IMG/VR virus record: IMGVR_UViG_2706794555_000001
Span: 1-64,000 of that record
Reading direction: 5' to 3' (one strand)
Origin: a virus
Lineage: Duplodnaviria > Caudoviricetes
Length of the DNA: 64,000 bases
In this document: one piece after another, positions 1 to 45,356 of the stretch
How the letters are laid out: each line of letters begins with the position of its first letter
How positions within the stretch are numbered: the first letter of the stretch is position 1
Translations under genes and position numbers: made by a program
Notes under the pieces: generated by a model
The model's database searches: none
Told to the model about the DNA's origin: nothing
Seen by the model: only the letters and a program-made list of their open reading frames with translations

Positions 1-3
1 CTG

Positions 4-978
4 ATGCCGTGGGCACGACTTGATGACCGGTTCCCGTCGAACCGCAAAGTCCGGCCGATATCGGACTCCGCTTTCCGGCTCTACGTCTCGGCGATCTGCT
101 GGAGCTCCGAGAACCTCACCGACGGCGTCATTGCGGCCGGGGAACTCCGCATGGTCTCCGACGTCCGCAACCCGCAGGCGCGTGCCGTGGAACTGGTCAA
201 GTGCGGCCTGTGGGAGGAGATCGCCGGCGTCGGCTGGCGCATCCACGACTACCACGACTACAACCCGACCCGGGACCAGGTGCGCTCGGCGAGGGACTCG
301 AACGCGGCCCGGCAGCAGGCGTTCCGCGACCGCCGGAAGAGCGCCGCGAAAGGCGACCGTAACGCCGTTACGAATCGCGGCCCGGAACGCGAAACCGACG
401 CGAACGCGACGCGAAACGAACATCAACAAGACTTCTACGCGACGGTAACCAACGGTGAAGACGACACATCACCGCAGGTCGCAGCAATTCGTAACGCCGT
501 TAGTAACACTGCCCCGTCCCGTCCCGTCCCGTCCCCAACCACTAATGGTCCCCAGAGAGAGAGTCCTGAACGTAGTACCGGGGCCCAGCCACAGGCGCTC
601 TCACTGATCAACTCCGCCTGGCAACCAAGCCCCGACGACATCCGCACCGCCCAACAAGCCCGCACCGCCGACGGACGCCCCGTCCTCACCGGCCAGCAAC
701 TCGCCGACATGACCCGCCGCTTCGTACGCCGCATGACCAGCGACCAGCGCACCGCCCTCCCCGACGCCTGGGGCGCCCGCTGGCAGGACTGGGCCGAACG
801 CGAACGCCCCGAACCCACCGGCCAGGCCTCCCTCCTCGTCGGCCTACCCGGCGGCAAAGGCCCGCTCTGGCCCCACGAACAGCAGGCAGCCAGCCCCGCC
901 ACACCACTGCCGCCACCCGTCAGCGACCGCCTCGCCCAAATCGAGGCCGCCATCGCCGCCGACGCCGATACCGGTTGA
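4..978 (+). CDS. Phage replication initiator-like protein (Rep 1)
   Basis: N-terminus MPWARLDDRF..NRKV..SDSAFRLY..ICWSSENLTDG and IHDYHDYN typical of actinophage initiators; internal iteron-like repeats; PSRPVPSP linker. Confidence 0.75.
   Translation: MPWARLDDRFPSNRKVRPISDSAFRLYVSAICWSSENLTDGVIAAGELRMVSDVRNPQARAVELVKCGLWEEIAGVGWRIHDYHDYNPTRDQVRSARDSNAARQQAFRDRRKSAAKGDRNAVTNRGPERETDANATRNEHQQDFYATVTNGEDDTSPQVAAIRNAVSNTAPSRPVPSPTTNGPQRESPERSTGAQPQALSLINSAWQPSPDDIRTAQQARTADGRPVLTGQQLADMTRRFVRRMTSDQRTALPDAWGARWQDWAERERPEPTGQASLLVGLPGGKGPLWPHEQQAASPATPLPPPVSDRLAQIEAAIAADADTG
358..507. repeat. Candidate origin iterons in Rep 1 (CGTAACGCCGTTA twice)
   Basis: Palindrome CGTAACG-C-CGTTACG at 358-372, second copy at 490-502, within a locally AT-richer stretch. 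Confidence 0.6.
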
Positions 979-2156: not shown

Positions 2157-2438
2157 CTAGTCGACCTGGGTGCGTGTGCTGCTCGCGGTCGGCTCGGCGG
2201 GGATCGGGTCGCTGTCGCCGGACGCTGCTCGGCGACCGTCCACCTCGTCGGCGATCTTGCGCGCCCATTCGCGGCTGTAGGGCACGTGCTTCTCGATGGT
2301 GGTCAGCGGGACGCCGGCTGCACGCGCGTCGGCGACAAGCTCGTCGAGCGCGGTCCTCGTGCTGGCGTGAGCTGCGGCGGCGCGGTCGAGCCTGCGGAGC
2401 CAGGCGGCCATTTCCTTGGGCGGGGGCTTCGGCGTCAT
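2157..2438 (-). CDS. Small HTH-type regulator, antisense to the early operon
   Basis: LVADARAAGVPLTTIEKHVPYSREWARKI HTH-like; divergent from 2583 across operator repeats. Confidence 0.65.
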   Translation of the reverse strand: MTPKPPPKEMAAWLRRLDRAAAAHASTRTALDELVADARAAGVPLTTIEKHVPYSREWARKIADEVDGRRAASGDSDPIPAEPTASSTRTQVD

Positions 2439-5553: not shown

Positions 5554-5918
5554 CCGAGCACCTGACCGATGAGCAGCTCGCAGCCGCAGCCCGGAAGGCC
5601 GCCGTCAGCATGGTCGGCGGACTCGCCCCCGGCTTGACCGGCCTGAACATCGCCGCCGAGATCGCCGAGAAGGTCACCGCGCCCTACGCCGCCGAGATCA
5701 CCCGCTTGCGCGCCGCCCTGGCCGAGTACACGCATCCCGTCGCGACCTGCTCCAACTGCCACCACCTCGCCCCGTGGCACGTCGGCAGCCTCGGCAAGAC
5801 CGAGCGCCCCTGCACTCAGCACGCATGCGGCTGCACCGACCTCGCCACCGCGCCCGCCGCCGCCCCGTGCGCCTGCACCACGGAGCCCGTCCACCAGCAC
5901 GGCTGCCCGCGCTTCTGA
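5550..5918 (+). CDS. Hypothetical Cys/His-rich protein
   Basis: ATGA overlap, CxxC motifs. Confidence 0.65.
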   Translation: MTEHLTDEQLAAAARKAAVSMVGGLAPGLTGLNIAAEIAEKVTAPYAAEITRLRAALAEYTHPVATCSNCHHLAPWHVGSLGKTERPCTQHACGCTDLATAPAAAPCACTTEPVHQHGCPRF

Positions 5919-5959
5919 CCCCGGCGCGGACCGCGCCCACCGACCACCTGAGGAGCACC

Positions 5960-7573
5960 GTGAACCACACCACCGCCGAGCCGACCGGCGTCACCATCGA
6001 TCTCTTCGCCGGTCCCGGCGGCTGGTCCGAGGGCATCCGCCGCCACCTCGGGATCACCGACATCGGCATCGAGTGGGACCGCTCCGCATGCCTCACCCGC
6101 CATGCCGCCGGCCACCTCACCATCCAGGCCGACGTCGCCACCTACCCGACCCGGCACATGGCCCACCTCCTGCGCGGCCTGATCGCCTCACCGCCCTGCA
6201 CCCTGTTCTCCTCCGCAGGCAAGGGCACCGGGCGCCGCGTCATCGACCTCCTCGCCGACGGCATCCGCCGGTTGTTCCGCGGCGACGACTGCCGTGGCGA
6301 AGTCATCGCCGCGATCCACCCCGTCGCCCTGGCCGAACTCCGCGAAGCCAACGCCAAGAAGGCACCCGAGAAGCAGCGCACCGACACCCAGCTGGAAGCC
6401 GCAGCCGGCACGGACGCCGCCTGCGCCGCCCTGGTGATGGAGCCCGCCCGCTGGATAGCCGAACTCCTCGCCGCCGACGGGATCCTGGAATGGGTCGCCC
6501 TGGAGCAGGTCCCCGCCGTCCAACCGCTGTGGGATGTCTACGCCGAGGAACTCCGCCGCCTGGGCTGGTCCGCCTGGACCGGGAAGCTCAACTCCGCCGA
6601 CTACGGCGTCCCGCAGACCCGCACCCGCGCGATCCTCATCGCCTCCCGCACCCGGACCGTCCAGCCGCCAGCCGCCACGCACTACGACCCCCGGCGCGAG
6701 AACGCCCTCGCCGACATCGGCCAGGACTCCCTGTTCGCGCCCGAGCTGCCCCGCTGGGTGTCCATGGCCCAGGCCCTCGGCTGGGCCGCCGAGCAGACCG
6801 TCAACACCCGCGGCGACCGCAAGACGTCCGGAGGCAACGAGTTCTCCGCCGACCGGCCGTCGTGGGCGCTGACCGAGAAGACCCGCTCCTGGATCCTGCA
6901 CACCAACCGTGGCCACTTCCGGGCCGACGGCGAACGCCAGTTGGTGAACCCGGAGTCCCAGCCCGCGCCCACGGTGACCACGAAGACCGGCGAGCAGTGG
7001 ACGCTGCGCAACGGCAACCAGCCCCGGGCCGCTGTTCGTGAGGCTGACGAGCCCGCCCCGACGATGACGTTCGGCAACAATGCGGCCCGCGTCGAGTGGG
7101 TGCTGCGGAACAACACCAACGCCAACGCCTGCGTCCGGGCGATGGACGAGCCCGCAGGCACCCTGTTCTTCGGGCATCGGGGCAACGACGTGTCCTGGGT
7201 GCTGCGCTCCGGTCAGTCCGTCGCCGGCGAAGGTCGAGCCGAGCGCAGCCAGGACGAGCCGGCCGTGACCATCACCGGTCGCGCGGATCTGTGCGCCTGG
7301 ACGCAGGAGCGGCCGGCGACCACGGTCTGCGCCACGAACCGCATCGCCCCACCCGGCCACCGTGACCGCGACCCGGGCGGCGAGTCCCAGTTCGCCAGCC
7401 CGGAGACGGTCCGCATCACCGTCCAGGAGGCCGCTGTCCCGCAGTCCTTCCCTGGCGACTACCCGTGGCAGGGGACCCGCACGAAGCAGTTTGAGCAGGT
7501 TGGGAACGCCGTCCCGCCGCTGCTCGCCGCCCATGTCGCGTCTGCCGCGTCCGGCATCCCCATGCCCGCCTGA
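5960..7573 (+). CDS. Orphan DNA (cytosine-5)-methyltransferase
   Basis: Motif I DLFAGPGG, motif IV SPPC, motif VI LEQV, motif VIII YGVPQTRTR, motif X QVGNAVPP; GAGGAG RBS. Confidence 0.93.
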   Translation: MNHTTAEPTGVTIDLFAGPGGWSEGIRRHLGITDIGIEWDRSACLTRHAAGHLTIQADVATYPTRHMAHLLRGLIASPPCTLFSSAGKGTGRRVIDLLADGIRRLFRGDDCRGEVIAAIHPVALAELREANAKKAPEKQRTDTQLEAAAGTDAACAALVMEPARWIAELLAADGILEWVALEQVPAVQPLWDVYAEELRRLGWSAWTGKLNSADYGVPQTRTRAILIASRTRTVQPPAATHYDPRRENALADIGQDSLFAPELPRWVSMAQALGWAAEQTVNTRGDRKTSGGNEFSADRPSWALTEKTRSWILHTNRGHFRADGERQLVNPESQPAPTVTTKTGEQWTLRNGNQPRAAVREADEPAPTMTFGNNAARVEWVLRNNTNANACVRAMDEPAGTLFFGHRGNDVSWVLRSGQSVAGEGRAERSQDEPAVTITGRADLCAWTQERPATTVCATNRIAPPGHRDRDPGGESQFASPETVRITVQEAAVPQSFPGDYPWQGTRTKQFEQVGNAVPPLLAAHVASAASGIPMPA

Positions 7574-11415: not shown

Positions 11416-11796
11416 TCACAGCGGCATGATCCTCCCGGCGGCGGTGAGTGCCGCCTCGACCTCCACGAACTGTGCCCGCAGCGCGCTCAACCGTTCGGCT
11501 TCGGCGGTGTGGGCGGCGAGGTACGGGGCCAGTTCGGCCGGTCCGAGGACGGGGCCGTACACGTCGCGGGTCTCCCGGTAGGACTCCCGCAGCGACTCGA
11601 TCATCCGATCGATCACGAACACGGACTGCCCGACCAGCTCCCACGGCCGGCGCCGCAACGCTTCGACGCGCCACTCCTCCGCGGGCAGGGCCTCCCGGAC
11701 CCAGGCGATGACGCGGACGGGCAGGTCGGGGTCGCTGGGCGGGGGCAGGCGCTTGGGCCAGTTGTGGGGTTGGATTCCGCGACGTCGTTCGGGCAT
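11416..11796 (-). CDS. Hypothetical actinobacterial protein, possibly SOS-regulated
   Basis: 126-aa ORF; leaderless -10 CATAAT and LexA-like box over the start. Confidence 0.7.
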   Translation of the reverse strand: MPERRRGIQPHNWPKRLPPPSDPDLPVRVIAWVREALPAEEWRVEALRRRPWELVGQSVFVIDRMIESLRESYRETRDVYGPVLGPAELAPYLAAHTAEAERLSALRAQFVEVEAALTAAGRIMPL

Positions 11797-11857: not shown

Positions 11858-11886
11858 GACGCCCCTGCCGCAGCAGCAGGGGCGTC
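11858..11886 (-). terminator. Hairpin terminator after the FxSxx peptide gene
   Basis: GACGCCCCTGC-7nt-GCAGGGGCGTC, 11-bp stem. Confidence 0.7.
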
Positions 11887-11898
11887 GGCGGTGCAGTC

Positions 11899-12072
11899 CT
11901 ACACGGAGGAACCAAACGCGGCGACCTCGATGCTCTTCCGCCCGGTCTCTCGCAGCACCCGGCCCAGCATCGTGGTGGCGGACTGGCCCTCGCGCATCTT
12001 GTCGTCGGCGAGACGGATCAGCGAGCGTCGCCCGGCGGCCGGCGCGGTCTTGGTCTTGAAGTTCGTGTCCAT
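11899..12072 (-). CDS. FxSxx-COOH family RiPP (cyclophane) precursor-like peptide, 57 aa
   Basis: GAGGAG RBS; ends LGRVLRETGRKSIEVAAFGSSV-stop, matching the FxSxx C-terminal signature and the preceding LxRVL helix. Confidence 0.7.
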   Translation of the reverse strand: MDTNFKTKTAPAAGRRSLIRLADDKMREGQSATTMLGRVLRETGRKSIEVAAFGSSV

Positions 12073-12110
12073 CGTGAGTCTCCTCGGTCGTGGGCCGGTC
12101 GGCCCGTTGA

Positions 12111-12515
12111 TCACAGCCGGGTGGGCTGCGAGTCCGCCCCGGAGGCGGAAGTCATGGGTGTTGCCGGGGTAGGCGGCCCGGTCGGCAGCATCTGCCAGGG
12201 CCCGTGGTCGGCGTGGCCAGCCGGACCGATACAGCGGTCATCCATGCGGTACGGGCCGTCCCAACGCCGCCGGACGTAGCCGCACTCGCCGACCAGCTGG
12301 CGGCCCTCCGTGGTCTGCTCGTCTGCCCAGACGACGCGGGCCAGCTTGCCGTGCGTCATCTGCGCGGCGGTCTCCGGGCTGCCCCAGGTGGCACCCAGGT
12401 AGTGGTTCCGGTTGCGGATGGACACGGTCCCGTCTGGCCACTGCACGCCGTCGTGGGTGATGACGGAGCCGTCCGAGGCGTCGAGCCAGATCACGAACAG
12501 GCGCGACTCAGTCAC
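12111..12515 (-). CDS. Hypothetical protein
   Basis: GTGA coupling; DGVQWPDGTV motif. Confidence 0.65.
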   Translation of the reverse strand: MTESRLFVIWLDASDGSVITHDGVQWPDGTVSIRNRNHYLGATWGSPETAAQMTHGKLARVVWADEQTTEGRQLVGECGYVRRRWDGPYRMDDRCIGPAGHADHGPWQMLPTGPPTPATPMTSASGADSQPTRL

Positions 12516-12727
12516 TTCTGCCTCCCAGCCAGTGCCGCGGCCTCGGCTGCCGCGCACGCCTTGCACACGTCCTCGACGAAGCCACCCGGCAGCGGGTTGA
12601 GCTGATCGCGGGTGCAGTAGTCGAAGCACAGTGCGCACATGACCCGGCCGTCCGTGAGCCGGTCCAGGCGCGTCCACGTCCCGCCGTCGGCGAGCTCCAC
12701 GGTCAGGAAGTCTGCGGGCTCGGTCAC
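12512..12727 (-). CDS. Small zinc-ribbon protein
   Basis: AAGGAG RBS; CALC and CKAC. Confidence 0.65.
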   Translation of the reverse strand: MTEPADFLTVELADGGTWTRLDRLTDGRVMCALCFDYCTRDQLNPLPGGFVEDVCKACAAAEAAALAGRQK

Positions 12728-13080: not shown

Positions 13081-13382
13081 AGCTTCACCCACCCAGCGCG
13101 CGGGCCTTTGAGGCGCGCACCCATGTCCCCGTGCTCGCCGTCGACCGGGCGCAGGTCCTCGCGGCTGCGGTCGTTGGCCAGCAGTTCCAGCGCTTCCCGA
13201 AGCGACGGGAGACTCACGGCGATCATCGCCTTCTCCTTCTGGCGGCTCTCCTTCGCGTCGACCTCCGTGTACTTCTCGACGGCCACGAACACCGTGTCGT
13301 CGACGACGGCCAGCGTGAGGATCTGGTCGGGTGGCCGGGCTCCGTCGAGGCAGTCGGCGAGGCTGATCTGAAAGACGGCCAT
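13077..13382 (-). CDS. Hypothetical protein
   Basis: TGATG coupling. Confidence 0.6.
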   Translation of the reverse strand: MAVFQISLADCLDGARPPDQILTLAVVDDTVFVAVEKYTEVDAKESRQKEKAMIAVSLPSLREALELLANDRSREDLRPVDGEHGDMGARLKGPRAGWVKL

Positions 13383-13900
13383 CAGGTCTCCGTGGTCTCA
13401 GGCAGCAGCAGCGCCAGGTAGGCGCGGACACGCTCATCCCGGCCGCACTGGCAGGCGGCGCTCGTCCCCCGGCGCGGGCAGTCGTAGCCGCCAGCACCGT
13501 CGTCGACGAGACCGTGCGGCTCGGCGAGCATGCGGGTGACGAGGGTGCGCAGCCGGCCGACCCGCGCCAGCGTCGTAGCGGGATCCTGTCGCGCGGCGTG
13601 CCGGAACTGGGCCCGCAGACCCCAGCCCTCGGCGTCGGAATGGTCGGAGCCGTCCTCGCACACGACACCCCAGTAGCCCGAGGTCACCTGCGGCGGCCGG
13701 GGCAGTCCCGGGCGCAGGGCCACGAGCAGCTCCACGTCGCCCTGGTAGTCCGACGCCACCCACTCGTCACCGTCGGGGGCAGGCGTCCAGTGGCCGGGCG
13801 TGCCGACGACGGTGTCTCCGCTGGCTTCTCGGGCGAGGCTCTCGTCCTTGTCGAGCTGCTTTCGGATGGCGTCGGCCAACTCTGCGATCGAGGCGGTCAC
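13382..13900 (-). CDS. DUF6221-like phage protein
   Basis: LDKDESLAREA...RHAARQDPATTLA pattern; AAGGAG RBS. Confidence 0.6.
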   Translation of the reverse strand: MTASIAELADAIRKQLDKDESLAREASGDTVVGTPGHWTPAPDGDEWVASDYQGDVELLVALRPGLPRPPQVTSGYWGVVCEDGSDHSDAEGWGLRAQFRHAARQDPATTLARVGRLRTLVTRMLAEPHGLVDDGAGGYDCPRRGTSAACQCGRDERVRAYLALLLPETTET

Positions 13901-19983: not shown

Positions 19984-21321
19984 TCAGACGAGCGTGACGA
20001 GCCGGGCGTAGTGGCCCTGCTGCTCGAGGTCGACTTCGCGTCCGCGCGGCCCGTTGCGGTTCTTGCCGACCTCGAGGTGGCGGACGCCGTTGTCGGGGCC
20101 CGGGTTGGCGGGGTCGTCGGGGATGTCCTTGGAGATCAGCAGGATCACGTTGGAGTCCTGCTCGATCTGGCTGGAGTCCTTGAAATCGGACACCAGCGGC
20201 TTGCGGCCGACCTGCCCCCGGTTGAACTGGGCCAGTGCCATCACGGGGACCTGGAACTCCATGGCGAGGAGCTTCAGGCCGCGCGAGATGTCGGCGACTT
20301 CCTGGGTGCGGTTCCTCGAGCCCGGCCCCTCGGGTGCGATCAGTTGGAGGTAGTCCGCGACGACGAGGGCTGGCGGGTTGCCCGTGGAGTGCATCCACCG
20401 GACCCGGGCGCGGATCTTGGACAGGGACAGGCCGGGTGAGTCGTCGAGGATGAAGTTGGTGGCGTTGCGGAGCCGGTCGGCGACCTTGGCGATGCGCTCC
20501 CAGTCCGGTTCGATCAGCTTGCGGTTGACGAGCCTGGACAGGTTCACGCTGGCTTCGGCGGCGGTGAGGCGGGCCAGCAGTTCGGTGCCGCCCATCTCCA
20601 TGGAGGCGACGAGGACGGGCCGGTTGCGGCGCAGTGCCACGTGCGCGGCGCAGTTGAAGCCGAGGAGCGACTTGCCGCCGGAGGTCTCCGCGCCGACCGC
20701 GATCAGGTCGCCGGGCTTGAAGCTGGTGACCTCATTCAGGTCCTTCCACGGGGTGTCGAGGGCGTTGGGGTCCTCGCCTGCCTCGAGCTGGTCGATGAAG
20801 TCGTCCCACCGCTCCCCTACGGACAGCTTGGGTGCGTCCTTGGGCGAGCCGAGGATCAGGGCTTGGAGGTCGGCGATGGTGGTGTCGAGGATGTCGTCGG
20901 GGTTGTCGCGCTCGAGGCTGCGGCGGACGGTGCGGGCGGCGATCTCGTAGATGCGGCGGAGCTTGGCGGTGTCGCGGACGATGCCGGCGTACCAGTCGGC
21001 GTTGGCGCTGACCGGCACAGCGGCGACGAGGCGGTGCAGGTATTCGCTGCCGCCGATGCGGTCGAGCTCTCCGACTTTGAGGAGCTGCGCGCCGACGGTG
21101 ATCGGGTCGGGTGTGATGCCGGGTTGTCCGTGGACTTCGAGGATTGCGGTGTGAATGGTGGCGTGGGCGGTGCGGTAGTAGTCGCCGGGGCCGGCGAGGG
21201 TGTCGGTGGCGTCGTCGATGGCTCGTTCGCCGAGGAGCATGCTGCCGAGGAGTGCCCGTTCGGCGGAGAGGTCACGCGGACGCGGGTCCTCTTCCTCGAG
21301 GTGCTCGGGCTGGTCGTTCAT
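19984..21321 (-). CDS. dnaB: DnaB-like replicative helicase
   Basis: AERALLGSML N-domain, Walker A GAETSGGKS, SMEM, VVADYLQL, ALAQFNR, SSQIEQDS, KNRNGP. Confidence 0.93.
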   Translation of the reverse strand: MNDQPEHLEEEDPRPRDLSAERALLGSMLLGERAIDDATDTLAGPGDYYRTAHATIHTAILEVHGQPGITPDPITVGAQLLKVGELDRIGGSEYLHRLVAAVPVSANADWYAGIVRDTAKLRRIYEIAARTVRRSLERDNPDDILDTTIADLQALILGSPKDAPKLSVGERWDDFIDQLEAGEDPNALDTPWKDLNEVTSFKPGDLIAVGAETSGGKSLLGFNCAAHVALRRNRPVLVASMEMGGTELLARLTAAEASVNLSRLVNRKLIEPDWERIAKVADRLRNATNFILDDSPGLSLSKIRARVRWMHSTGNPPALVVADYLQLIAPEGPGSRNRTQEVADISRGLKLLAMEFQVPVMALAQFNRGQVGRKPLVSDFKDSSQIEQDSNVILLISKDIPDDPANPGPDNGVRHLEVGKNRNGPRGREVDLEQQGHYARLVTLV

Positions 21322-22202
21322 GCGGCGGCGTCCTTGGTGTGGTCGGGGTGGCAGGTTCGGCATGGCGCGGAGCTGCGGAATCCGTCGGCGTCTTCGGTGG
21401 TGCGACGCCGGGTGGCGGGGTTGCAGTCCTCGTCCTCGCACCACGGGGTGGTTGGGCCGCCGGGCGAGGCGCGGGTCTTGGCGGTGGGCTTCTTGATCAG
21501 GTCGGCGATGCGGACGGGCAGGACGGTGATGAAGTTCTTGATCCCACCGGGGTTCTTCGTCAACTCGGTGGCGAGGTCGTCGTCCAAGTCCCAGCCCTGT
21601 GCGTGGATGGCTTCCAGGAGCTGCGGGGCGAGCTTGGCGGCCGTGGCGCGTCCGACGGCCCAGGGTCCGGGCAGCGACTGGAGGAAGGTCTCGGCTGCTT
21701 GTTGCTGGTCTCCTCCGCCTCCTCCTGGGGTGGTGGAGGCAGGCGGGTCGGCAGGTGCGGAGGTGGTGGTCTCTGGTGGGGTGGTGGTGATGTGGTCGGG
21801 TGAGCCGACCGATTCCGCTTCGGATTGGTCGGGTGAGCCGACCACCCCTGGTCGGGTAGGCCGACCGATTTCAGATTTGGGATCGGTCGGGTGAGCCGAC
21901 CGATTGGTGGTCTCGGGTCGCCGGTGGCCGACTGCTCCACGGAGCCGATACACGCTGGCTCCGTAGCGGCCTTTCTCGCCCTCAACGACTTCCAGTTCTC
22001 CGGCTTTCAGGAGCACCTGGATCGCGTCGGTGACGGCCTCGCGGGTGCAGTTCGCCCGCTGCTGGAGAAAGGTCACGGACCCGTAGGCCTTGCATTCTCT
22101 GGCGGCCGGCAGAGCCTTGTCGGCGAGGGCCAGCAGCACGAGGCGGCCCACCCCCTTGGAGCTGGAGTGGTTCCACACCCAGTCCATCGCATCAAGGCTC
22201 AC
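21318..22202 (-). CDS. Phage replication initiator (Rep 2) with N-terminal wHTH
   Basis: MDWVWNHSSSKGVGRLVLLALADKA; internal iterons; C-terminal PWC..C...PCRTCHP; coupled to dnaB. Confidence 0.85.
   Translation of the reverse strand: MSLDAMDWVWNHSSSKGVGRLVLLALADKALPAARECKAYGSVTFLQQRANCTREAVTDAIQVLLKAGELEVVEGEKGRYGASVYRLRGAVGHRRPETTNRSAHPTDPKSEIGRPTRPGVVGSPDQSEAESVGSPDHITTTPPETTTSAPADPPASTTPGGGGGDQQQAAETFLQSLPGPWAVGRATAAKLAPQLLEAIHAQGWDLDDDLATELTKNPGGIKNFITVLPVRIADLIKKPTAKTRASPGGPTTPWCEDEDCNPATRRRTTEDADGFRSSAPCRTCHPDHTKDAAA
21794..21901. repeat. Four 17-bp palindromic iterons (probable origin)
   Basis: GGTCGGGTGAGCCGACC at 21794, 21827, 21885 and GGTCGGGTAGGCCGACC at 21850. Confidence 0.85.
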
Positions 22203-22719: not shown

Positions 22720-23172
22720 ATGAGCGGCGAACACGACGACTTCGCCCGCTGGCTGCGCGAACGCGCCCGCATCGCCGGCTTCGACCTCGACCAGCGCGGC
22801 ATGACCTCACGCCTCGCCGAAGCCTCCGGCATCGACCCCGCCCAGATGAGCCGAGCAGTACGCGGCCTCAGCGTCCCCGCCATCGAAGGCCAGCGCGGCC
22901 TCGCCAAAGCGCTAGGCCTCAAGCTGCCCGAGGTCATGATCCGCGCCGGATCAGCCACACCCGACGACTTCCCGCCCCAGTGGGACCTCGACGACTCCCC
23001 GGCCCCGCCGCTCTCCTCGCGGGACATCGAGAGCGTCTACCTGACCATGTACGCGTCCCGCTTCAGAATCACCGACCAGGACACACGGCGCTTCATCCGG
23101 ATGGTCAAGGCGCTCGCCACCGAGCTGGGCCACGGCCACATCGAGGATGAGCAGCCCGCCTCGGACGGCTAG
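22720..23172 (+). CDS. Immunity repressor (XRE HTH)
   Basis: FARWLRER...SRLAEASGIDPAQMSRAVRG..VP...LAKALG. Confidence 0.85.
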   Translation: MSGEHDDFARWLRERARIAGFDLDQRGMTSRLAEASGIDPAQMSRAVRGLSVPAIEGQRGLAKALGLKLPEVMIRAGSATPDDFPPQWDLDDSPAPPLSSRDIESVYLTMYASRFRITDQDTRRFIRMVKALATELGHGHIEDEQPASDG

Positions 23173-26901: not shown

Positions 26902-27749
26902 CCGAGGACAAGCCGATGGCCTCACCCGCGACACTGCGCCGCATCGCGCTGGGCACCGTCATCGCCACCATCGCCCTGACCGGTACCGCGTTCTGGCTCT
27001 CCTACGAACACCTGCACGACGTCGCCAGGCACTACGGACTCGACGGCAGCCGCGCCTGGGCATGGCCCGCGACCGTCGACCTGTTCATCGTCATCGGCGA
27101 AGCCCTGATCCTCAGCGCATCACTGCAGCGCCTGACCGACAGGGCCGCCATCGTCCTGGCCGTCATCGGCTCCACCGGATCCATTGCCCTCAACGTCGCC
27201 GGCGTCGGCAGCCACGCCCCCGGCATGACCTACGTCGTTGCCGCCGTGCCACCGTGCGCGGCGCTTCTGGCGTTCGGCGCGCTGATGCGGCAGATCCACG
27301 AGAACCTCTCAGGTGGCAGCCGGGCGGAGACTGGCAGTGGCAGCAGTGCGCCTGCCAGCGCACCGCCAGAGCCTGCCAGTCGAGCGGCTGCCAGCGCCCC
27401 TGCCACCCCTGCCACTCCCCCGGCTGCCACCCCTGGCAGGACCGTGCCAGAGCCCGGCGCGGCCCCCGCTGGCACGCCTGCCAGCCCGCGGCCCGCCACC
27501 CCTGGCAAGGCGCCCGCGGCAGCCGCTGGCACTTCGGACAGCACCCTCGCTGCCGCCAGCGAGGCCCGGGATCTCGACGAGGTCGCCGACACCTACCGCA
27601 AGCTCGCCGCAGCCCTCGGCCGCGCCCCATCGGACAAGGCACTCGCCGACGCCCTCGGCGTGGGCCGCTCCCGCGCGCAGCAGTTGCGCTCCGCCGCCGC
27701 CGAAGCAGGGCACGCCGATCTGGCCAAAGCGCTCCGGGCGGCATCATGA
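26898..27749 (+). CDS. DUF2637 membrane protein with C-terminal HTH (Streptomyces transfer/spread protein)
   Basis: AFWLSYEHLHDVA...RAWAWPATVDLFI...SIALNV...AAVPP; HTH PSDKALADALGVGRSRAQQLR. Confidence 0.85.
   Translation: MTEDKPMASPATLRRIALGTVIATIALTGTAFWLSYEHLHDVARHYGLDGSRAWAWPATVDLFIVIGEALILSASLQRLTDRAAIVLAVIGSTGSIALNVAGVGSHAPGMTYVVAAVPPCAALLAFGALMRQIHENLSGGSRAETGSGSSAPASAPPEPASRAAASAPATPATPPAATPGRTVPEPGAAPAGTPASPRPATPGKAPAAAAGTSDSTLAAASEARDLDEVADTYRKLAAALGRAPSDKALADALGVGRSRAQQLRSAAAEAGHADLAKALRAAS
27314..27531. repeat. TGCCA/TGGCA pentamer array 1 (candidate clt)
   Basis: 15 copies counted by eye in about 220 bp, both orientations. Confidence 0.8.
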
Positions 27750-29704
27750 CCGCCCCCAGTGACGTGACGCCGACCCCGCAGCTCTCGAAAACGCTCCGGC
27801 CTGCACCGATGCTCCCAGCCGTCACCACGTCACGTCACGGCGCTTCCCTCGCGGGCAGCCTGGAGACGTTCGCCGCCTGGTGCTCCCGACGCCGCTACGA
27901 GGCCGCTCCGCTCGCCGGGAACGCCGCCCTGACCGGCATCGCCTGGACCGAGAACCTTTCCGGCGTCGGCCTGGGAACCGGCCTGGCCTACGGTGCGGCC
28001 ACCGCAGCCTCCGGGGCACTCGCCGGCTTGGCCCTCAAGCACAAGCACCAGCACCTCGCCTCCGCCGGAGCCGGACTGACCGCGATCCTCGCCGACGCCG
28101 GCATCAACGCCATGGCCGGCCCGTCGACCGCCGGCCTGATTGCCAGTGCTATTGCCACCGCTGCCAGCTACGCCGTCTACATCCCCTGGTTGACCCGGCA
28201 CCGGCACGAGCGGTTGGCACTCCACGTCCAGGCCGCCAAGGCTGGCACCCTGGCAGGTGGCATGGGGCTGGCAGCGCAGGCCCCTGGCATCACGGGTGGC
28301 AGCGCGGAGGAGACCGCGATCTACCGGGCCCTGGCAGCCCTGGGTGCCACGCCGCTGTCCATCGACGCGTTCCAGTCGAACGCCAGCGGCTGGGTCGCCC
28401 TGGTGACCCTGCCGCCGGGCCGGGCCACGAGCCCGGGTGCGGTGTCCGCGAAGCGCGAGCAGCTGCGCACCAACCTCGGTCTGCCCGGACGGCTCACGCT
28501 GGGCCAGGGCCCGCAGGGCAACCAGCTGATCATCCGGATGCAGACCGTCGACCCGCTCGCCGACCCCATCCCGTGGCCCGGCCCGTCGATCACCTCCGTG
28601 AAGCAGGCCATGACAGTGGGCCTGTTCGCGGACGGCACCCCGATCCTCCTCGACGTCATGGCCGACCACATCCTCGTCGCCGGGGCCACCGACAAGGGCA
28701 AGTCGGGTCTCCTCAACGTCATCATCGCCAACCTCGCAGGCTGCCCCGACGTCAAGATCCTCGGCATCGACATGAAGCCCGGCGCCCTGGAACTCGGCCC
28801 CTGGCAGGCCGTCATGCACGCCCTGGCCTCCGGGGCCGAGGGTGCCGAGGCCGTCGCGGACTACGTCGTGCGTGAGATGGAACTCCGCGGCGAGCACCTC
28901 GCCACCCTGCGCGGCCCGGACGGTGAGCCGGTCCGCAAGTGGATCCCCGGCAACCCCGACGCCGACCCCGACTCGCCCGAGTGGGGCCACGGCGACGCCT
29001 GGGTGCTGGTCATCGACGAGCTGGCCGAGTTGGTCCGGCAGACCCCGAAGGTCGCCGACCGGCTCATCACCCTCAACCAGGTCGCCCGCGCCATGGGCAT
29101 CCGGATCCTCGCCGCCACCCAGTCCCCGTCCGAGCGCGCGTTCGGCGGCAAGGGCACCGACGCCCGCCAGCAGTACGGCACCCGCATCGGCCTGGGCGTC
29201 AACGAGTCCGTGACCGTGAACCTGATCCTCGGCGCCGGTGCGCTCGGCGCCGGCTGGCGGCTGCAGGACCTGGACGCCCCCGGCAAGCTGATGATCTCCT
29301 CGAAGCGGTACGGGCAGCCGCAGGAAGCCCGCGCCTACTGGATCGGCGACGGCCAGATCGCCGCGACCGCGCGCCTCAACGCCACCCGCAAGGCCGACCC
29401 GGACGGAACCCCGCCGGACGGCGGCGGCACGAAGCCGCGGCTGCTGAAGTCCGTGCCCTGCTTCCCTGACGGCTCCGAGATCCCCGCGAACCGGCAGTCC
29501 CTGTGGCAGGCCCTGGACCGGCGCGGCGCCGAGGGCGCGACGATCCTCGAACTCCTCGCCGAGGTCGCCGGGACGGGCCTGAACCAGCGCACGTCGATCT
29601 CCGACCCGATCCAGTCCTGGAAGGCCCGCGGCTGGGTCGTCGACGGCGGTCGCCGCGACGCCTCCAAGGTCTTCATCCTCGCCCGCCACGCCGAAGCAGC
29701 CTGA
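27746..29704 (+). CDS. traB: FtsK/SpoIIIE-family conjugal DNA translocase (TraB-like)
   Basis: N-terminal TM segments; Walker A ILVAGATDKGKSG; GIDMK; Walker B VLVIDELAEL; ATQSP; C-terminal wHTH. Confidence 0.88.
   Translation: MTAPSDVTPTPQLSKTLRPAPMLPAVTTSRHGASLAGSLETFAAWCSRRRYEAAPLAGNAALTGIAWTENLSGVGLGTGLAYGAATAASGALAGLALKHKHQHLASAGAGLTAILADAGINAMAGPSTAGLIASAIATAASYAVYIPWLTRHRHERLALHVQAAKAGTLAGGMGLAAQAPGITGGSAEETAIYRALAALGATPLSIDAFQSNASGWVALVTLPPGRATSPGAVSAKREQLRTNLGLPGRLTLGQGPQGNQLIIRMQTVDPLADPIPWPGPSITSVKQAMTVGLFADGTPILLDVMADHILVAGATDKGKSGLLNVIIANLAGCPDVKILGIDMKPGALELGPWQAVMHALASGAEGAEAVADYVVREMELRGEHLATLRGPDGEPVRKWIPGNPDADPDSPEWGHGDAWVLVIDELAELVRQTPKVADRLITLNQVARAMGIRILAATQSPSERAFGGKGTDARQQYGTRIGLGVNESVTVNLILGAGALGAGWRLQDLDAPGKLMISSKRYGQPQEARAYWIGDGQIAATARLNATRKADPDGTPPDGGGTKPRLLKSVPCFPDGSEIPANRQSLWQALDRRGAEGATILELLAEVAGTGLNQRTSISDPIQSWKARGWVVDGGRRDASKVFILARHAEAA
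28141..28349. repeat. TGCCA/TGGCA pentamer array 2 inside traB
   Basis: 12 copies counted in about 210 bp, forcing rare codons (ATT GCC AGT GCT ATT GCC). Confidence 0.75.
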
Positions 29705-36590: not shown

Positions 36591-37901
36591 GTGTCCATCG
36601 CACCACTGACCGGCAAGGGCCTGGAGTCAGTGCGGCTCGCCGACGCCCGCATCAACCTGTGGGAAGGCTCGGTGCGGTCCTCCAAGACCGTGTCGAGCCT
36701 CATGCGGTGGCTCAAGTTCGTTCGCGAGGCGCCGCCCGGCAACCTCCTGATGACGGGCAAGACCGAGCGCACCCTCAAGCGCAACGTCATCGACGTACTC
36801 ACGGAGTGGCTCGGCCCCTCACGCTGCAAGCTCATCGCGGGCAGCGGCGAACTGTGGCTCCTCGGCCGGCGGGTGTACGTGGCCGGCGCGAACGACGAGC
36901 GCGCCCAGGAGAAGATCCGGGGCCTGACCCTGGTGGGCGCGTATGCCGACGAGGTGTCGACGCTCCCCGAGTCGTACTGGTCGATGCTGCTCACCCGCCT
37001 GTCCGTCGACGGCGCGAAGCTCTTCGGCACCACCAACCCCGACTCGCCGGCGCACTGGCTCCTCAAGGACTACCTGCAGCGGTCCTCCACCTGGCTGGAC
37101 CATTCCGGGCAGCTCCTGCGCAGCGAGGGCGAGGACCGGCTCGACCTGGCCCGGTTCTCGTTCCGCCTCGCCGACAACCCGTACCTATCCACGGCCTACA
37201 TCGACGCCCTGTCCTCCGAGTTCACCGGCCTGTGGCGGAAACGGTTCATCGAGGGCCTGTGGGTCGCCGCCGAAGGCGCGATCTACGACATGTGGGACGA
37301 GCAGCGGCACGTCGTCGACATCATCCCGCCGATCTCGCAGTGGCTGTGCGCCGCGATCGACTACGGCACCAGCAACCCGCTGCACGCCGTCCTGCTGGGC
37401 CTGGGCACGGACTCGCGCCTGTACGTGGTCTCCGAGTGGAGGCACGACTCCCGCCAGGCGCACCGGCAGATGACCGACGCCGAGTACACGGAGCGGGTCC
37501 GCGAGTGGCTGCAGGAAGTACCCGTGCCTGCCAGCCGTCGCCCCGACGGGACGTGGCTGCGCGGCGTGCAACCGCGCTACATGATCGTGGACCCGTCGGC
37601 CGCCTCGTTCCGGGTGCAGCTGCACCGGGAGGGCATGAACCCGGTCGCAGGCAACAACGCGGTCCTGGACGGCATCCGAACCGTGTCGAGCCTGATGGCC
37701 GCCGGACGCCTGAAGGTCAGCCGCGACTGCCCGGCGCTCCTCGCGGAGATCCCCGGCTACGCCTGGGACGACAAAGCCGCCCGCAAGGGCGAAGACAAAC
37801 CGATCAAGATGGCCGACCACGGCCTGGACGCCCTCAGGTACGCCGTGATGACCACGCGCTCCCTCTGGCACTCCTCGATCCCACTTGCCATAGCGGCGTA
37901 A
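36591..37901 (+). CDS. terL: Terminase large subunit (PBSX-like)
   Basis: EGSVRSSKT Walker A, YADE Walker B, TTNPDSP, IDYGTSNP, DPSA, DHGLDALRY. Confidence 0.95.
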   Translation: MSIAPLTGKGLESVRLADARINLWEGSVRSSKTVSSLMRWLKFVREAPPGNLLMTGKTERTLKRNVIDVLTEWLGPSRCKLIAGSGELWLLGRRVYVAGANDERAQEKIRGLTLVGAYADEVSTLPESYWSMLLTRLSVDGAKLFGTTNPDSPAHWLLKDYLQRSSTWLDHSGQLLRSEGEDRLDLARFSFRLADNPYLSTAYIDALSSEFTGLWRKRFIEGLWVAAEGAIYDMWDEQRHVVDIIPPISQWLCAAIDYGTSNPLHAVLLGLGTDSRLYVVSEWRHDSRQAHRQMTDAEYTERVREWLQEVPVPASRRPDGTWLRGVQPRYMIVDPSAASFRVQLHREGMNPVAGNNAVLDGIRTVSSLMAAGRLKVSRDCPALLAEIPGYAWDDKAARKGEDKPIKMADHGLDALRYAVMTTRSLWHSSIPLAIAA

Positions 37902-37911
37902 CGAAAGGCCG

Positions 37912-39699
37912 GTGACCATGACCGTGCCTATGCCGTCGATGCCGCTGCTGCAGGGAATGCCCGTCACCGACGCCCGCGCGCAGAACATGCTGCCGACTAC
38001 CAACCAGCCGTGGCCGCCGGTCCGCTTCAACCCGGTCAACTACGACCAGCGCATCTGGTCCGCGTGGTGGTCCGGCAGCCCCGACGAGCTGATGCGCGCC
38101 TACTACTCGATCGGCGCGAACAGTCCGCTCGGGCGCCAGTACTTCGCCACGACCGGCGAGGCGGGCATGCCCTCCCCGCGGCCGGGGCAGTTCCGCGGCG
38201 GCCTGCTCGGCAGCATCCGCCGGTTTTTCTGGGGCCAGCCCACCCCGCCCGGGGAAAAGCGCACGAACTACCACGTGCCGATCGCAGGCGACTTGGCGTC
38301 GACCTCGGCGAGCCTGCTGTTCGCGCAGCCGCCCACGCTGAAGTGCGATCAGGACTCCGGCGCCCAGGACTACCTTTCCGAGCTGCTGGACGACGGCATG
38401 CACTCGACGCTGCTGGAGGCGGCGGAGTGCGCGTCGGCCCTCGGCGGGGTGTTCCTGCGGGTCGTGTGGGACACCGACATCGCCGACCATCCGTGGATCG
38501 ACATCGTGCCGCCGGACTGCGCCGTGCCGGAGTTCCGGTACAACCGTCTGGTCGCGGTGACGTTCTGGTCGGTGATCCGCGACGAGGGCAAGGACGTTGT
38601 CCGGCACCTGGAGAAGCACATCCCGTCGCAGAACGTGATTCTGCACGGCGTCTACCAGGGCACCCAGAAGGACCTGGGGCGCCCGGTGGCGCTCACCGAC
38701 TTCCCCGAGACCGCCCCGTACGCGCAGGCCATGTCCACGGGCGACGGAATCTCGTTCCCCGACGCCCCGTTCGACGCCTCCACCGTCGTGTACATCCCCA
38801 ACATGCGGCCGAATCGGATCTGGCGGGACATGGGCCCCCAGGCCGCACCGCTCGGCCGCAGTGACTTCTCGGGCCTCGAAGGCATGATGGACGGCCTCGA
38901 CGAGGCCTTCTCCTCCTGGATGCGGGACATCCGGTTGGGCAAGGCCAGGCTGATCGTGCCGCACTCCTACCTGGACAACATCGGCCGGGGCAAGGGCGCG
39001 GTGTTCGAGCCGGAGCGCGAGGTGTTCGTTCCGGTCGGCGGCCTCATCTCCGGCGAGGGCTCCATCGGCGACCAGATCATGCCGCAACAGTTCAACATCC
39101 GCTGGGAGGAGCACCAGCAGACCTGCCAGAGCATCATCGAGCAGATCGTCACGCAGGCCGGCTACTCCGGCCAGACCATGGGGCTCACCGGTGACATCGC
39201 GCAGACCGCGACGGAGGTCGTGGCGCGGGAGCGGAAGTCGCTGACCACCCGCGGCAAGAAGATCAACTATTGGCGGCCTGCGCTCGCGGACATCGTCTAC
39301 GGCCTCATGGCCATCTCCAACTCCGAGTTCGGCCAGGCCATCACGCCCGTGCGGCCCGATGTCGACTGGCCCGACGCGGTCCTCCCGGACCAGCTCGAAC
39401 TCGCGCAGACCGTCGCGGCGCTGCGCGGCGCCGAATCCGCCTCGATCGAGACCGCCGTCGCGACCGTCCACCCGGACTGGACCCCGCAGGACGTTGCCAA
39501 GGAAGTCCAGCGGATCTACCAGGAGATGGACATCAACATCCTGGCCCGCGCCAAGGTCGCCATCGGAGGCCAGCCCGGCGAGTCCGTCGCCGACGCGCTC
39601 GCGGAGATCCCAGACGCGATCGGCGCAACGGACGTCGCCCAACAGGCCGAGGCCCTGGCGAACGTGTCCGACATGTACGAGTCCCAGGACGAATCCTAG
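37912..39699 (+). CDS. Portal protein
   Basis: Follows terL; GRSDF..LDEAFSSWMRDIRLGKARLIVP; TATEV. Confidence 0.9.
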   Translation: MTMTVPMPSMPLLQGMPVTDARAQNMLPTTNQPWPPVRFNPVNYDQRIWSAWWSGSPDELMRAYYSIGANSPLGRQYFATTGEAGMPSPRPGQFRGGLLGSIRRFFWGQPTPPGEKRTNYHVPIAGDLASTSASLLFAQPPTLKCDQDSGAQDYLSELLDDGMHSTLLEAAECASALGGVFLRVVWDTDIADHPWIDIVPPDCAVPEFRYNRLVAVTFWSVIRDEGKDVVRHLEKHIPSQNVILHGVYQGTQKDLGRPVALTDFPETAPYAQAMSTGDGISFPDAPFDASTVVYIPNMRPNRIWRDMGPQAAPLGRSDFSGLEGMMDGLDEAFSSWMRDIRLGKARLIVPHSYLDNIGRGKGAVFEPEREVFVPVGGLISGEGSIGDQIMPQQFNIRWEEHQQTCQSIIEQIVTQAGYSGQTMGLTGDIAQTATEVVARERKSLTTRGKKINYWRPALADIVYGLMAISNSEFGQAITPVRPDVDWPDAVLPDQLELAQTVAALRGAESASIETAVATVHPDWTPQDVAKEVQRIYQEMDINILARAKVAIGGQPGESVADALAEIPDAIGATDVAQQAEALANVSDMYESQDES

Positions 39700-39714
39700 A
39701 GAGAGGACGCGGAG

Positions 39715-39966
39715 ATGGCGGACAGCAAGAGCAAGGGCAAGCAGACCATCAAGTCGCCGGGCAAGAAGGCAGTCACCTTCAAGAAGGGCGCGCTCCACAA
39801 GCAGCTCGGCGTGCCCGCCGACAAGCCCATCCCGCCCGGGAAGATGGCCGCCGCACAGCGCGGCGACTTCGGGCCGACCGCGGCCAAGCGGGCGAACTTC
39901 GCGGCGAACGTCCTGGGGCAGGGCCAGAAGACCGCCGCCGCGAACCGCTCCAAGAAGGGCAAGTAG
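39715..39966 (+). CDS. Small Lys-rich basic protein
   Basis: KKGALHKQLGVPADKPIP...KRANFA. Confidence 0.75.
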   Translation: MADSKSKGKQTIKSPGKKAVTFKKGALHKQLGVPADKPIPPGKMAAAQRGDFGPTAAKRANFAANVLGQGQKTAAANRSKKGK

Positions 39967-39968
39967 CC

Positions 39969-40310
39969 ATGGCCGCGACCCCGCAGGACGCCCAGCGCCG
40001 CACCCCCGGCGCACCCGACAGCACCAAGCCCGCACATCTGGCCGCGAGCTCCGCGCGCACCCCCACGCACGCGGTCACCGGGCCCGCCGCGTGGGAGAAC
40101 GGCCGCGACGCGACCTCAACGCCCGCCGGACCCCCGTCACTGCGCGGTACCGCAGCCAGCGACGCCGACCCGACGTGTCAGGTCACGCAGACCGTCGGCA
40201 TGAACCCGAACCCGCCCGACGTTCGGTCGGCGTCGACTCCCGCTGACACCAACACGCCGGTGGTCGCCGGCAGCCCCACCGGCTTCACCCCGTTCATGAA
40301 CCAGTACTGA
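39969..40310 (+). CDS. Pro/Thr-rich disordered protein
   Basis: ORF in head operon. Confidence 0.6.
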   Translation: MAATPQDAQRRTPGAPDSTKPAHLAASSARTPTHAVTGPAAWENGRDATSTPAGPPSLRGTAASDADPTCQVTQTVGMNPNPPDVRSASTPADTNTPVVAGSPTGFTPFMNQY

Positions 40311-40321
40311 GGAGAGTCGCG

Positions 40322-40498
40322 ATGGCCAAGCAGATGCCGCCAGCCGGCCGCCCGCACAGGACTCCCGGCGCCCAGCCCCCGCCCCGTACCCCAGGCGCTA
40401 CCCAGGGAACTGCGCTGGAGCGCGCCCAGCTCGCCAAGCCCGGCCTGAGCAAGGCGCCGGACGCGAAGCCCACCCCGCAGGGCGGCTCCGGGTCCTGA
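40322..40498 (+). CDS. Small Pro-rich protein
   Basis: GAGGAG RBS; 58 aa. Confidence 0.6.
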   Translation: MAKQMPPAGRPHRTPGAQPPPRTPGATQGTALERAQLAKPGLSKAPDAKPTPQGGSGS

Positions 40499-40512
40499 CC
40501 GCAGGGGGTGCG

Positions 40513-41439
40513 ATGGCCACGCCACTGCCGTCCACCTCTGGCGATGCCCGGGAAGACCACGCCCAGCAGATCGGGGCGCACGTCGGTGCCGCTGTCGCGC
40601 AGGCGGAGCTCGCCGTGATCGCGACCGTCGCCATGCTGGCCAAGCGCGTCGCCACCGGATCCCTGCTGCCGACCGTGGCACGAAAGCAACTGGCCAGGAC
40701 CACCGACACCGTCCTCACGGCGGCGGTCCACCGGGCGCTCCTCGCCGACCGCCAACTGCCCGCCGATCTCGCCCCGTCGTTCGAGGCCGCCGTACAGTCC
40801 GCTGCCGTGTCGGCGCAGGACGCGCTCGCCGCCGCAACCGCATCCCCCCAGCAGCCGGCCGCGTCGGTACCCCGCATCCGCGTCGCGCAACTGGCCCTCG
40901 ACGCCCTTGCCGCGCAGGGCCTGGTCGGGTTCGTCGACCGGGCCGGGCGACGCTGGAACCTCGCCGGCTACGCGGAGATGGCCACCCGCACCGCCGTCTC
41001 CAACGCGTGGGACGAGCGGCAGGCCGACGAGCTCACCCGCATCGGCGTCGACCTGGTCGTCGTAGGAACGCACAGCACCGAAGGCTCTTGCAGGCTGTGC
41101 CGCCCCTGGCTCGGCCGCAGTCTGTCGCTGACCGGTGCGACCCCGGGATTCCCAACCCTGGCCGACGCCAAGGCCACCGGGTTCAGGCACCCGAACTGCC
41201 GCTGCTCCTGGGGTACCCCGGGGATGCTCACTGCCGTGCCGAGCCCGACCGACCTGGCCCGGTCCGCCGCGGCCTACACGGCAGCGCAGCGCCAGCGGAC
41301 CCTCGACCGCCGCCAACGCGCCGCACACCGGCGCATGGCGGCAGCGGTGACGCCGCAGGCCCGCACGACAGCCCGCCGTGAACTGGGCCTGATCCGCCTT
41401 GACCTCAGGCGCCGTCAGCACCCGTTCCGGGAGCGCTGA
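40513..41439 (+). CDS. Minor capsid protein (MuF-like)
   Basis: FVDRAGRRWNL.GYAEMATRT; C.LC.PW.G; HPNCRC. Confidence 0.9.
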   Translation: MATPLPSTSGDAREDHAQQIGAHVGAAVAQAELAVIATVAMLAKRVATGSLLPTVARKQLARTTDTVLTAAVHRALLADRQLPADLAPSFEAAVQSAAVSAQDALAAATASPQQPAASVPRIRVAQLALDALAAQGLVGFVDRAGRRWNLAGYAEMATRTAVSNAWDERQADELTRIGVDLVVVGTHSTEGSCRLCRPWLGRSLSLTGATPGFPTLADAKATGFRHPNCRCSWGTPGMLTAVPSPTDLARSAAAYTAAQRQRTLDRRQRAAHRRMAAAVTPQARTTARRELGLIRLDLRRRQHPFRER

Positions 41440-41725
41440 CCAGACGGCGCGTCGCCCGAAGCGACGCTGCGATCTGCGGGCCCCACGCGTCTGCAACGAG
41501 TTTCCCCGCAGGCGAGAGCTCGACACGGGCGGGGATCGGCTGCCGCTGGCCATTGCAGGCCGCCAGGTGCTCCTCGGCGACCGCCAGCACCTGCAACAGA
41601 TTCAGGCCGTCGATACAGGGCGCCCAGTCGCACTTCTCGAAGTCGTGGGCGAGTTCCGAGCCGCCGCCGTACGCGCCCTCGTTCGAGACCAGGAATCGCT
41701 CCATGCCGTTCGCCTGCTCACTCAT
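41405..41725 (-). CDS. Antisense moron, hypothetical protein (probably leaderless)
   Basis: TACCGT-N6-ATG on minus strand; fills the gap in the head operon. Confidence 0.55.
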   Translation of the reverse strand: MSEQANGMERFLVSNEGAYGGGSELAHDFEKCDWAPCIDGLNLLQVLAVAEEHLAACNGQRQPIPARVELSPAGKLVADAWGPQIAASLRATRRLVSAPGTGADGA

Positions 41726-41852
41726 GGCCCAACGGTAACCCCATAGACCACCCGCCCCGCGTGGGCGGGTTCGGCTGCCAGCCGGCCTGGCAGCCACGCA
41801 CACCCCAACGCGACCCGCCCGGTGCGGGCCACGACGCCCCCGGAGGGCAGCA

Positions 41853-42716: not shown

Positions 42717-42804
42717 CCCATCGCGCACGGAAGTCCCCGTGCGCCTGTGACGCAACGCCCCGGCGAGTCCGTCGGGGCATTTACATGCGCAGAAAGGGAC
42801 AGAC

Positions 42805-43719: not shown

Positions 43720-43838
43720 CCTGCGGCGTTGCAAGTCAGGCAGCCTCCCGACCGTGCTCTCGTCGCCGCTTTCCTGGGCTCGGCCGCGCGTTCTCGGAAA
43801 TGCATTCCTGGTTTTACAGAACGCGGTATTATCAGAGG

Positions 43839-45347: not shown

Positions 45348-45356
45348 GGCGCACCC

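Follow-up and report, generated by a model that had tools for sequence, protein, structure and literature searches.

The 64,000-nt stretch of viral DNA analysed here (the window) encodes a 57-residue peptide which is almost certainly a true homologue of FxsA, the FxSxx-COOH precursor, carried by a phage. The element to which it belongs brings no maturase of its own, its host possesses a complete Fxs system, and the peptide resembles the FxsA variant of that host. We propose, at about even odds, that the phage uses the peptide to mimic host FxsA and that this mimic, once matured in trans by the host enzyme FxsBH, modulates the predicted TIR-ParA-STAND system of the Fxs locus, most likely by holding it off.

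The gene lies on the minus strand, starting with ATG at 12070-12072 and ending with TAG at 11899-11901 (sequence and open reading frame list). The locus has the following features.

11858-11886, minus strand: 13-bp perfect GC-rich hairpin directly 3′ of the stop (folding, z -2.9, no U tail)
11899-12072 including the stop, minus strand: orphan fxsA-like gene, 57-aa FxSxx-COOH precursor P0001, homologous to the FxsB-adjacent precursor of the host, with F53 and S55 invariant
12080-12085, minus strand: ribosome-binding site GAGGAG, 7 nt before the ATG, read from the sequence

The product (MDTNFK...EVAAFGSSV; full translation MDTNFKTKTAPAAGRRSLIRLADDKMREGQSATTMLGRVLRETGRKSIEVAAFGSSV) has F-G-S-S-V as its C-terminus, and these last five residues fit the pattern F-x-S-x-x-stop. 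The sequence-only reading had described a 57-aa gene ending EVAAFGSSV-stop with a strong ribosome-binding site and a terminator of its own. The frame and the ribosome-binding site were both confirmed, and sites of the GGAAGGA or GAGAGGA type stand at equal distance in three other loci (L013, L024 and L027). The GC3 of the reading frame (0.89), in a high-GC genome, fits real coding on the minus strand. The terminator was found in the form of the hairpin, which is likely to be a factor-independent terminator or an RNA end without a U tail; because the U tail is absent, a simple consensus terminator scan missed it. Folding of seven phage loci revealed a similar hairpin after the stop in four (window, L024, L026 and L039). 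A consensus scan for a promoter of the peptide gene found none, and the gap between the gene and the upstream reading frame is 38 nt. The stop codon of that upstream frame overlaps, in a GTGA at 12111-12114, a GTG codon from which a longer peptide of 71 aa would result. The overlap may allow translational coupling, though the homologues favour the ATG start: the 71-aa reading (GTG at 12114) was dropped, as the start of 24 of 24 database homologues coincides with the ATG. Pfam and PHROGs searches with the window peptide returned no family, and no signal sequence was detected on it.

The proposal that the peptide resembles FxSxx precursors was borne out by comparison with the host. In BLASTP the window peptide matched the FxsB-adjacent FxsA of the host in 40 of 45 positions (89%, E 3e-27). 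The final 16 residues, including F-x-S, are identical; the N-terminal 12 residues are unlike the host precursor, and near-identity starts at residue 13. The peptide of another contig, L025, where FxsB follows the precursor gene, is likewise 89% identical to the window peptide. A search of 5.8 billion proteins yielded 24 homologues, all ending AAF[GA]S[SNT][VI]. Conservation of the terminal F-x-S, on which the sequence-only reading had made its claim depend, is complete in all 24, and F53 and S55 are invariant in 26 of 26 rows of the alignment (A1). When the whole 8.46-Mb genome was scanned in six frames with the expression [VIL]AAF.S..stop, three matches appeared, the window gene and two in the chromosomal Fxs cluster; since all three are FxsA-like, the match in the window exceeds chance.

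The family model suggested for checking the assignment, TIGR04268 (FxSxx-COOH), does match the window peptide (19.8 bits, E 7e-4, NCBIfam), yet the score is under the curated cut-off of 28 bits; the score against the SjiA family (19.2 bits) is likewise under the cut-off of that model. The FxsB-adjacent precursors used as controls also stayed below the cut-off (C113 peptide 19.0 bits, L025 peptide 15.4 bits), which indicates that TIGR04268 is insensitive for this subfamily and that the low score is no counter-argument. One phage-borne peptide (L036) clears the cut-off with 29.0 bits. By sequence, the window peptide is a homologue; its gene stands outside any standard fxs operon.

The window belongs to a prophage. 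The 46-nt 3′ end of a tRNA-Arg(tct) gene at C124:71897-71942 recurs exactly at C82:29121-29166 and represents the att core; a tyrosine integrase (C124:70872-71381) lies beside this tRNA gene, just outside the window. Gene order in C82:34-44 kb and in C124 follows that of a single complete phage genome, G401. The att repeat and the collinearity indicate a prophage of about 90 kb, split over two contigs of the host assembly. C82 ends with ...CTGAT within an HNH-endonuclease-like reading frame, and C124 starts with CTGAT... (window 1-150). The element is a temperate tailed phage, with packaging, head and tail genes, integrase and att repeats. Its relevant features are these.

1-64000, no strand: whole window, inside the ~90-kb prophage C82:29167-47737 + C124:1-71896, flanked by the 46-nt repeat
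11416-11796, minus strand: 126-aa gene, downstream neighbour of the peptide gene; in G401 and L039 its homologue immediately follows the peptide gene
12111-12677, minus strand: upstream reading frame of the leftward operon, start uncertain, no known family
13382-13900, minus strand: member of the leftward operon encoding a DUF6221 protein; related elements show it in synteny with the peptide gene
19984-21444, minus strand: DnaB-like replicative helicase, encoded close to the start of the leftward (early) operon
22720-23172, plus strand: repressor-like gene of the switch region (phrog_3949, E 5.6e-11), divergent from the leftward operon
36591-54604, plus strand: late module with large terminase, portal, major head protein and tape measure (1380 aa)

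The peptide gene is assigned to the leftward operon by gene order. It had been taken for the last gene of the leftward run, which is nearly so: one further leftward gene, the 126-aa neighbour, lies beyond the hairpin. This neighbour has no Pfam, PHROG or PADLOC family, and in an Atlas search it found only hypothetical actinobacterial look-alikes and no known fold. The window also encodes a C5 cytosine methyltransferase (5774-7573, plus strand) and an 880-aa FtsK/SpoIIIE-like protein (27062-29704, plus strand) that is 79% identical to its G401 counterpart. The nearest DnaB of an isolated phage is only 37% identical (INPHARED), and the phage thus represents a lineage without a cultured relative in that collection.

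A radical SAM gene had been reported missing from the window, and the absence extends to both prophage contigs: none of the 20 PF04055 matches of the genome falls on C124 or C82. Neither do any of its four FxsB-model matches, its single HExxH match or its five FxsC matches. A cognate maturase elsewhere in the same element, which would have spoken against an orphan precursor, was therefore looked for and not found in the prophage.

The host, in contrast to the prophage, is well equipped. The search for fxsB, fxsC and fxsT that had been recommended found two FxsB maturases far above the cut-off (C113:51862-52953 and C99:18195-19322) and a full FxsC/FxsT set. On C113 the gene order is FxsC, FxsT, fxsA, FxsBH, AAC(3)-like acetyltransferase, FxsC, FxsT, with fxsA (C113:53010-53198) 57 nt upstream of FxsBH. 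FxsBH has 812 aa and combines a radical SAM/SPASM part with an aKG-HExxH hydroxylase domain in which the HExxH motif is intact. FxsC is TIR-like, and FxsT consists of a ParA-like ATPase with TIR, STAND and TPR parts. FxsB was found in every one of the 23 genomes of the host genus.

Three further observations concern the host loci. The acetyltransferase encoded between FxsBH and FxsC (L029:6646-7563, minus strand; G000:C113:49646-50563) belongs to the AAC(3)/Antibiotic_NAT family, and may be a peptide-tailoring enzyme instead of a resistance gene. A third FxsA-like peptide of the host (…RVLRGVPQQRVEVAAFQSSI; L091/L007, G000:C113:68908-69090, minus strand) is encoded about 16 kb from FxsBH as a chromosomal orphan precursor; two FxsC-like TIR genes that score below threshold lie next to it, and in its core the peptide is similar to the viral one of L037. 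The second Fxs locus (G000:C99:18195-19600) encodes a 751-aa FxsB and a precursor ending FDSAL, a core type unlike the VAAF peptides.

In the parts of PMC7159879 and 10.64898/2026.10.19.760177 that deal with these genes, FxsC and FxsT are predicted to form a TIR-ParA apoptosis system to which the FxsAB peptide is coupled; the role proposed for the peptide is that of toxin, antiviral molecule or alarm signal. The assignment as a conflict system is presented there as purely computational, by comparative genomics. PADLOC gave only generic ParA and viperin-like radical SAM matches for the host Fxs proteins, the peptide and the products of the two neighbouring genes; its catalogue contains no Fxs system.

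Orphan genes of this type recur in related phages. Besides L025, where FxsB lies directly downstream of the peptide gene, three loci (L024, L026 and L027) have homologues of the early genes of the window prophage around the peptide gene, in conserved order, and no FxsB within the flanks examined. L026 is the same contig as the IMG/VR record G401. This record (98,183 bp, terminal repeats, CheckV 100%) is a complete phage with portal, TerL, tape measure and integrase, and it contains no radical SAM gene. The portal reading frame of G401 (L034:636-3707, minus strand; 1023 aa) includes a match to a MutT/NUDIX hydrolase PHROG at residues 600-726 and a minor-head/MuF-like part; a virion-borne NUDIX domain may be of interest in a phage that is confronted with a TIR system.

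Degenerate scans of IMG/VR with [DE]VAAFxSS[IVM]-stop added five further viral contigs (L036-L040). Four of them (L036-L039, identical to G402-G405) carry other FxSxx variants; three of these four records are at least 90% complete, and radical SAM genes were found in none of the four. L036, L037 and L039 share early genes with the window prophage, including a DnaB 80% identical, and in L039 the 126-aa gene lies directly 3′ of the peptide gene. L038 and L040 are weaker candidates. Taken over the window's subfamily or another one, the peptide gene is kept at the same locus in at least five divergent elements. The survey of actinophages for orphan copies, which the sequence-only reading had called for, was positive for viral contigs of IMG/VR and for prophages and negative for isolated phages, where tblastn with three peptide queries gave no relevant match in 50,697 INPHARED records. 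An IMG/VR scan for the variant with TCN-AGY serine codons had no matches, and of three pattern matches in a contig scan with the A1 alignment none was confirmed. The listing of sequencing runs contained no RNA source, only soil DNA rows with a small share.

In a tree of the subfamily (28 rows, with genomic context known for six and not for 22) the two FxsB-linked rows fall within a five-row clade (support 92/85), and the four rows with phage context are scattered over the other 23. In the first 12 residues a systematic difference separates the FxsB-linked clade from the remaining rows.

Comparison of the phage gene with host fxsA revealed 81% nucleotide identity over 129 nt, corresponding to the C-terminal part, between unrelated flanks. 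By the Nei-Gojobori method the last 24 codons gave a dS of 0.90 and a dN/dS of 0.08, and the last 43 codons a dS of 0.75 and a dN/dS of 0.17. These values indicate that the gene was not captured recently and that it is under selection.

Does the phage peptide follow the FxsA variant of its own host? The FxsA peptides of congeneric genomes are strongly divergent (for example ...LSRVLPDSGVSRLDVAAFNSSI). A scan of one genome per species produced 27 pattern matches; six (L044, L053, L055, L058, L062 and L065) were not FxsA-like and were removed before counting. In 18 of the 21 FxsA-like cases FxsB lies directly downstream, and in three (L045, L048 and L049) it does not. L049 (G406:C5:1039-1209) lies in a prophage collinear with that of the window, with DUF6221, DnaB, repressor and, 26 kb off, terminase; the FxsB-adjacent FxsA of the same genome is L054. 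This prophage also contains a cluster of six tRNA genes (L072, G406:C5:21409-21947; Met, Leu x2, Ser x2, Gln). L045 and L048 (the latter from a Streptosporangium record, locus 2187-2216, minus strand) are FxsA-like genes whose 8-kb locus contains no FxsB. The equivalent peptides of G006, which has the same peptide tail as L045, and of G013 are encoded at a distance of 7.5-8 kb from FxsB.

Each phage peptide was compared over its last 22 residues with 21 FxsB-linked peptides. The window peptide matched best the C113 peptide of its own host (21/22); outside its own subfamily the best match reached 13/22. For L049 of the G406 prophage the best match was again that of the own host (L054, 17/22), followed by 13/22. 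The G401 peptide was closest to L025 (20/22) and next to the C113 FxsA of the window's host (19/22), which belongs to the same subfamily. The L025 contig carries the same metagenome name prefix as G401, and the rarer ending AAFASSV is found in both; AAFSSSI occurs in L049 and L054 alone within the compared set. In both known phage-host genome pairs the phage peptide thus matches best the variant of its own host, a result that is suggestive and no statistical proof, because the compared peptides are related and not independent. The comparison covers two genome pairs in one genus and one metagenome co-occurrence.

Scanning the genus with VAAFxSSx-stop gave 20 matches in 16 of 23 genomes, and the reversed control pattern gave one. 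Prophages carry two of these 20, and one arose by chance: G001:C1:1116606 (VAAFASTV-stop) is the end of a long unrelated reading frame. When 401 genomes of the family were searched with the A1 profile, only G000 and G006 were found at E<=1e-8, and the L039 peptide reached at best 45-46% identity in the same 401 genomes.

The mechanism that we favour would run as follows. The peptide gene would be transcribed as a distal member of the leftward early operon, which includes DnaB; the position in this operon, which starts by the repressor-like gene, suggests that the peptide is probably made early after induction or infection. Host FxsBH would then recognise the phage peptide in trans and modify it, forming a Phe-to-Ser cyclophane and perhaps adding a beta-hydroxylation. 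As the recognition and core parts of host FxsA are retained, FxsBH should be able to modify the phage peptide; as the N-terminal 12 residues are unlike those of the host, recognition is not guaranteed. Maturation of the window peptide by host FxsB is probable. The matured phage product would replace the host peptide at its target in the FxsC/FxsT TIR-ParA-STAND system, and its purpose would most likely be to prevent the predicted abortive-infection system from being triggered during the shutdown of host synthesis by the phage. Such an antidote-like mimic would have a parallel in phages that bring along an antitoxin copy. If the peptide were itself a toxin, an antiviral molecule or an alarm, a phage copy would seem self-harming, unless its effect were to desensitise the system or it were of use to the lysogen. 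A net anti-defence effect of the window peptide is a reasonable possibility that we place a little below an even chance. In its widest form the idea is more tentative still: a fast-evolving FxsA-mimic cassette of temperate actinophages may track the host variant, hijack the maturase and silence, or trigger at will, the Fxs suicide system.

The host matching is equally compatible with a gene that serves the lysogen (a moron), the extra FxsA arming or pre-alerting the lysogen's Fxs system against superinfecting phages, or warning kin. The phage is temperate, with integrase and repressor-like gene, and the gene, equipped with a ribosome-binding site and a post-stop hairpin of its own, forms a compact unit; the relevant parts of PMC7159879 and 10.64898/2026.10.19.760177 moreover view the peptide as an amplifier, antiviral molecule or alarm signal. 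However, the 38-nt gap is too short for a separate promoter, in line with the negative scan, and an operon shared with DnaB and divergent from the repressor-like gene indicates lytic rather than lysogenic expression. The same peptide, moreover, is already encoded by the host. We regard this explanation as unlikely. Near-identity to host FxsA from residue 13, in leader and core, would also suit a substrate decoy that competes with host FxsA for FxsBH and jams the maturase, the phage product itself being inert, and so would the systematic difference of the N-terminal 12 residues between the FxsB-linked clade and the other rows. A pure competitor needs the recognition part only, but the modifiable F-x-S and the last 16 residues equal those of host FxsA, strong purifying selection acts on the last 24 codons, and the C-terminal core is the best-conserved part among the phage variants; the decoy is accordingly quite improbable.

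Two other explanations carry still less weight. Temperate phages encoding a short peptide that needs host processing, in variants that differ between phages, recall arbitrium, and the peptide might serve communication between phages or between phage and lysogen, being matured by host enzymes and deciding between lysis and lysogeny. We consider this very improbable: a signal sequence and a consistently linked receptor gene are both absent, the 126-aa neighbour, with no known fold, is present in three elements only (window, G401 and L039), and a host that makes the same peptide would confound a phage-specific signal. The restriction of host-gene homology to the C-terminal 129 nt and the absence of the gene from the isolated phages searched could, finally, point to a functionless passenger, a fragment of host fxsA acquired by illegitimate recombination and merely carried. 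A dN/dS of 0.08-0.17 at a dS near saturation, intact start codon, ribosome-binding site and stop, and retention at the same locus in the divergent elements make this the most improbable of the readings considered.

The family is already known and the peptide is a new member of it; its enzyme-less, host-matched carriage by phages is a new variant, testable and potentially important. In the literature we found no phage-borne FxsA and no RiPP-precursor immune mimic; the supplementary tables of PMC7159879 and 10.64898/2026.10.19.760177 might list such loci. The words mimic, decoy, counter-defense and anti-immun are all absent from the main text of the preprint (10.64898/2026.10.19.760177). A host-matched phage peptide kept under purifying selection without its enzyme is independent genetic evidence for a role in the conflict between phage and host. 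It also provides an experimental handle, with one small gene, two natural phage-host pairs in one genus and a natural set of variants. If the mimic reading is true, the peptide would represent a new class of counter-defence, a ribosomal peptide dependent on a host maturase, and the first RiPP-precursor counter-immunity factor; modified FxsA would be the regulatory ligand of the Fxs immune system, and the ligand logic of a widespread actinobacterial immune module would be identified.

Among known systems, the TIR-ParA 'apoptosis' and VMAP-linked peptide-processing systems (Kaur et al. 2020, PMC7159879; 10.64898/2026.10.19.760177) share FxsC, FxsT and FxsAB with the host C113 locus. The peptide is described in the corresponding parts of these sources as a host component only, whereas here a copy is phage-borne. 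The window peptide is also close to the FxsA-FxsB cyclophane ('triceptide') RiPP system of Actinomycetota (TIGR04268, TIGR04269, NF040585-NF040588). It agrees with this system in being a small peptide (57 aa), in the C-terminal F-x-S-x-x and in the 89% identity over 45 residues to the precursor encoded directly upstream of FxsBH. The window gene differs in being phage-borne, in an element without FxsB, HExxH, FxsC or FxsT; it has no FxsB neighbour, unlike 18 of the 21 FxsA-like genes of the species genomes.

Precursors at a distance from their enzyme are familiar from the prochlorosins, where ProcA precursors encoded away from the maturase are served by one ProcM. The window precursor is likewise far from its enzyme and presumably served in trans, but here precursor and enzyme belong to separate genetic entities with conflicting interests, phage and host. 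The arbitrium peptide AimP is a short signalling peptide encoded by phages, the maturation of which depends on host enzymes. Shortness, phage coding and presumed host-dependent maturation are common to AimP and the window peptide; the window phage, however, has no receptor gene or secretion signal, and its host has a gene for the same peptide. A phage-borne antidote mimic is known from a Pectobacterium phage, whose antitoxin RNA pseudo-ToxI allows escape from ToxIN. The proposed logic is the same, a phage copy of the host's small regulatory molecule silencing an abortive-infection effector. Pseudo-ToxI is an RNA, whereas the window phage would use a ribosomal peptide that still needs the radical SAM enzyme of the host for its proposed inhibitory role.
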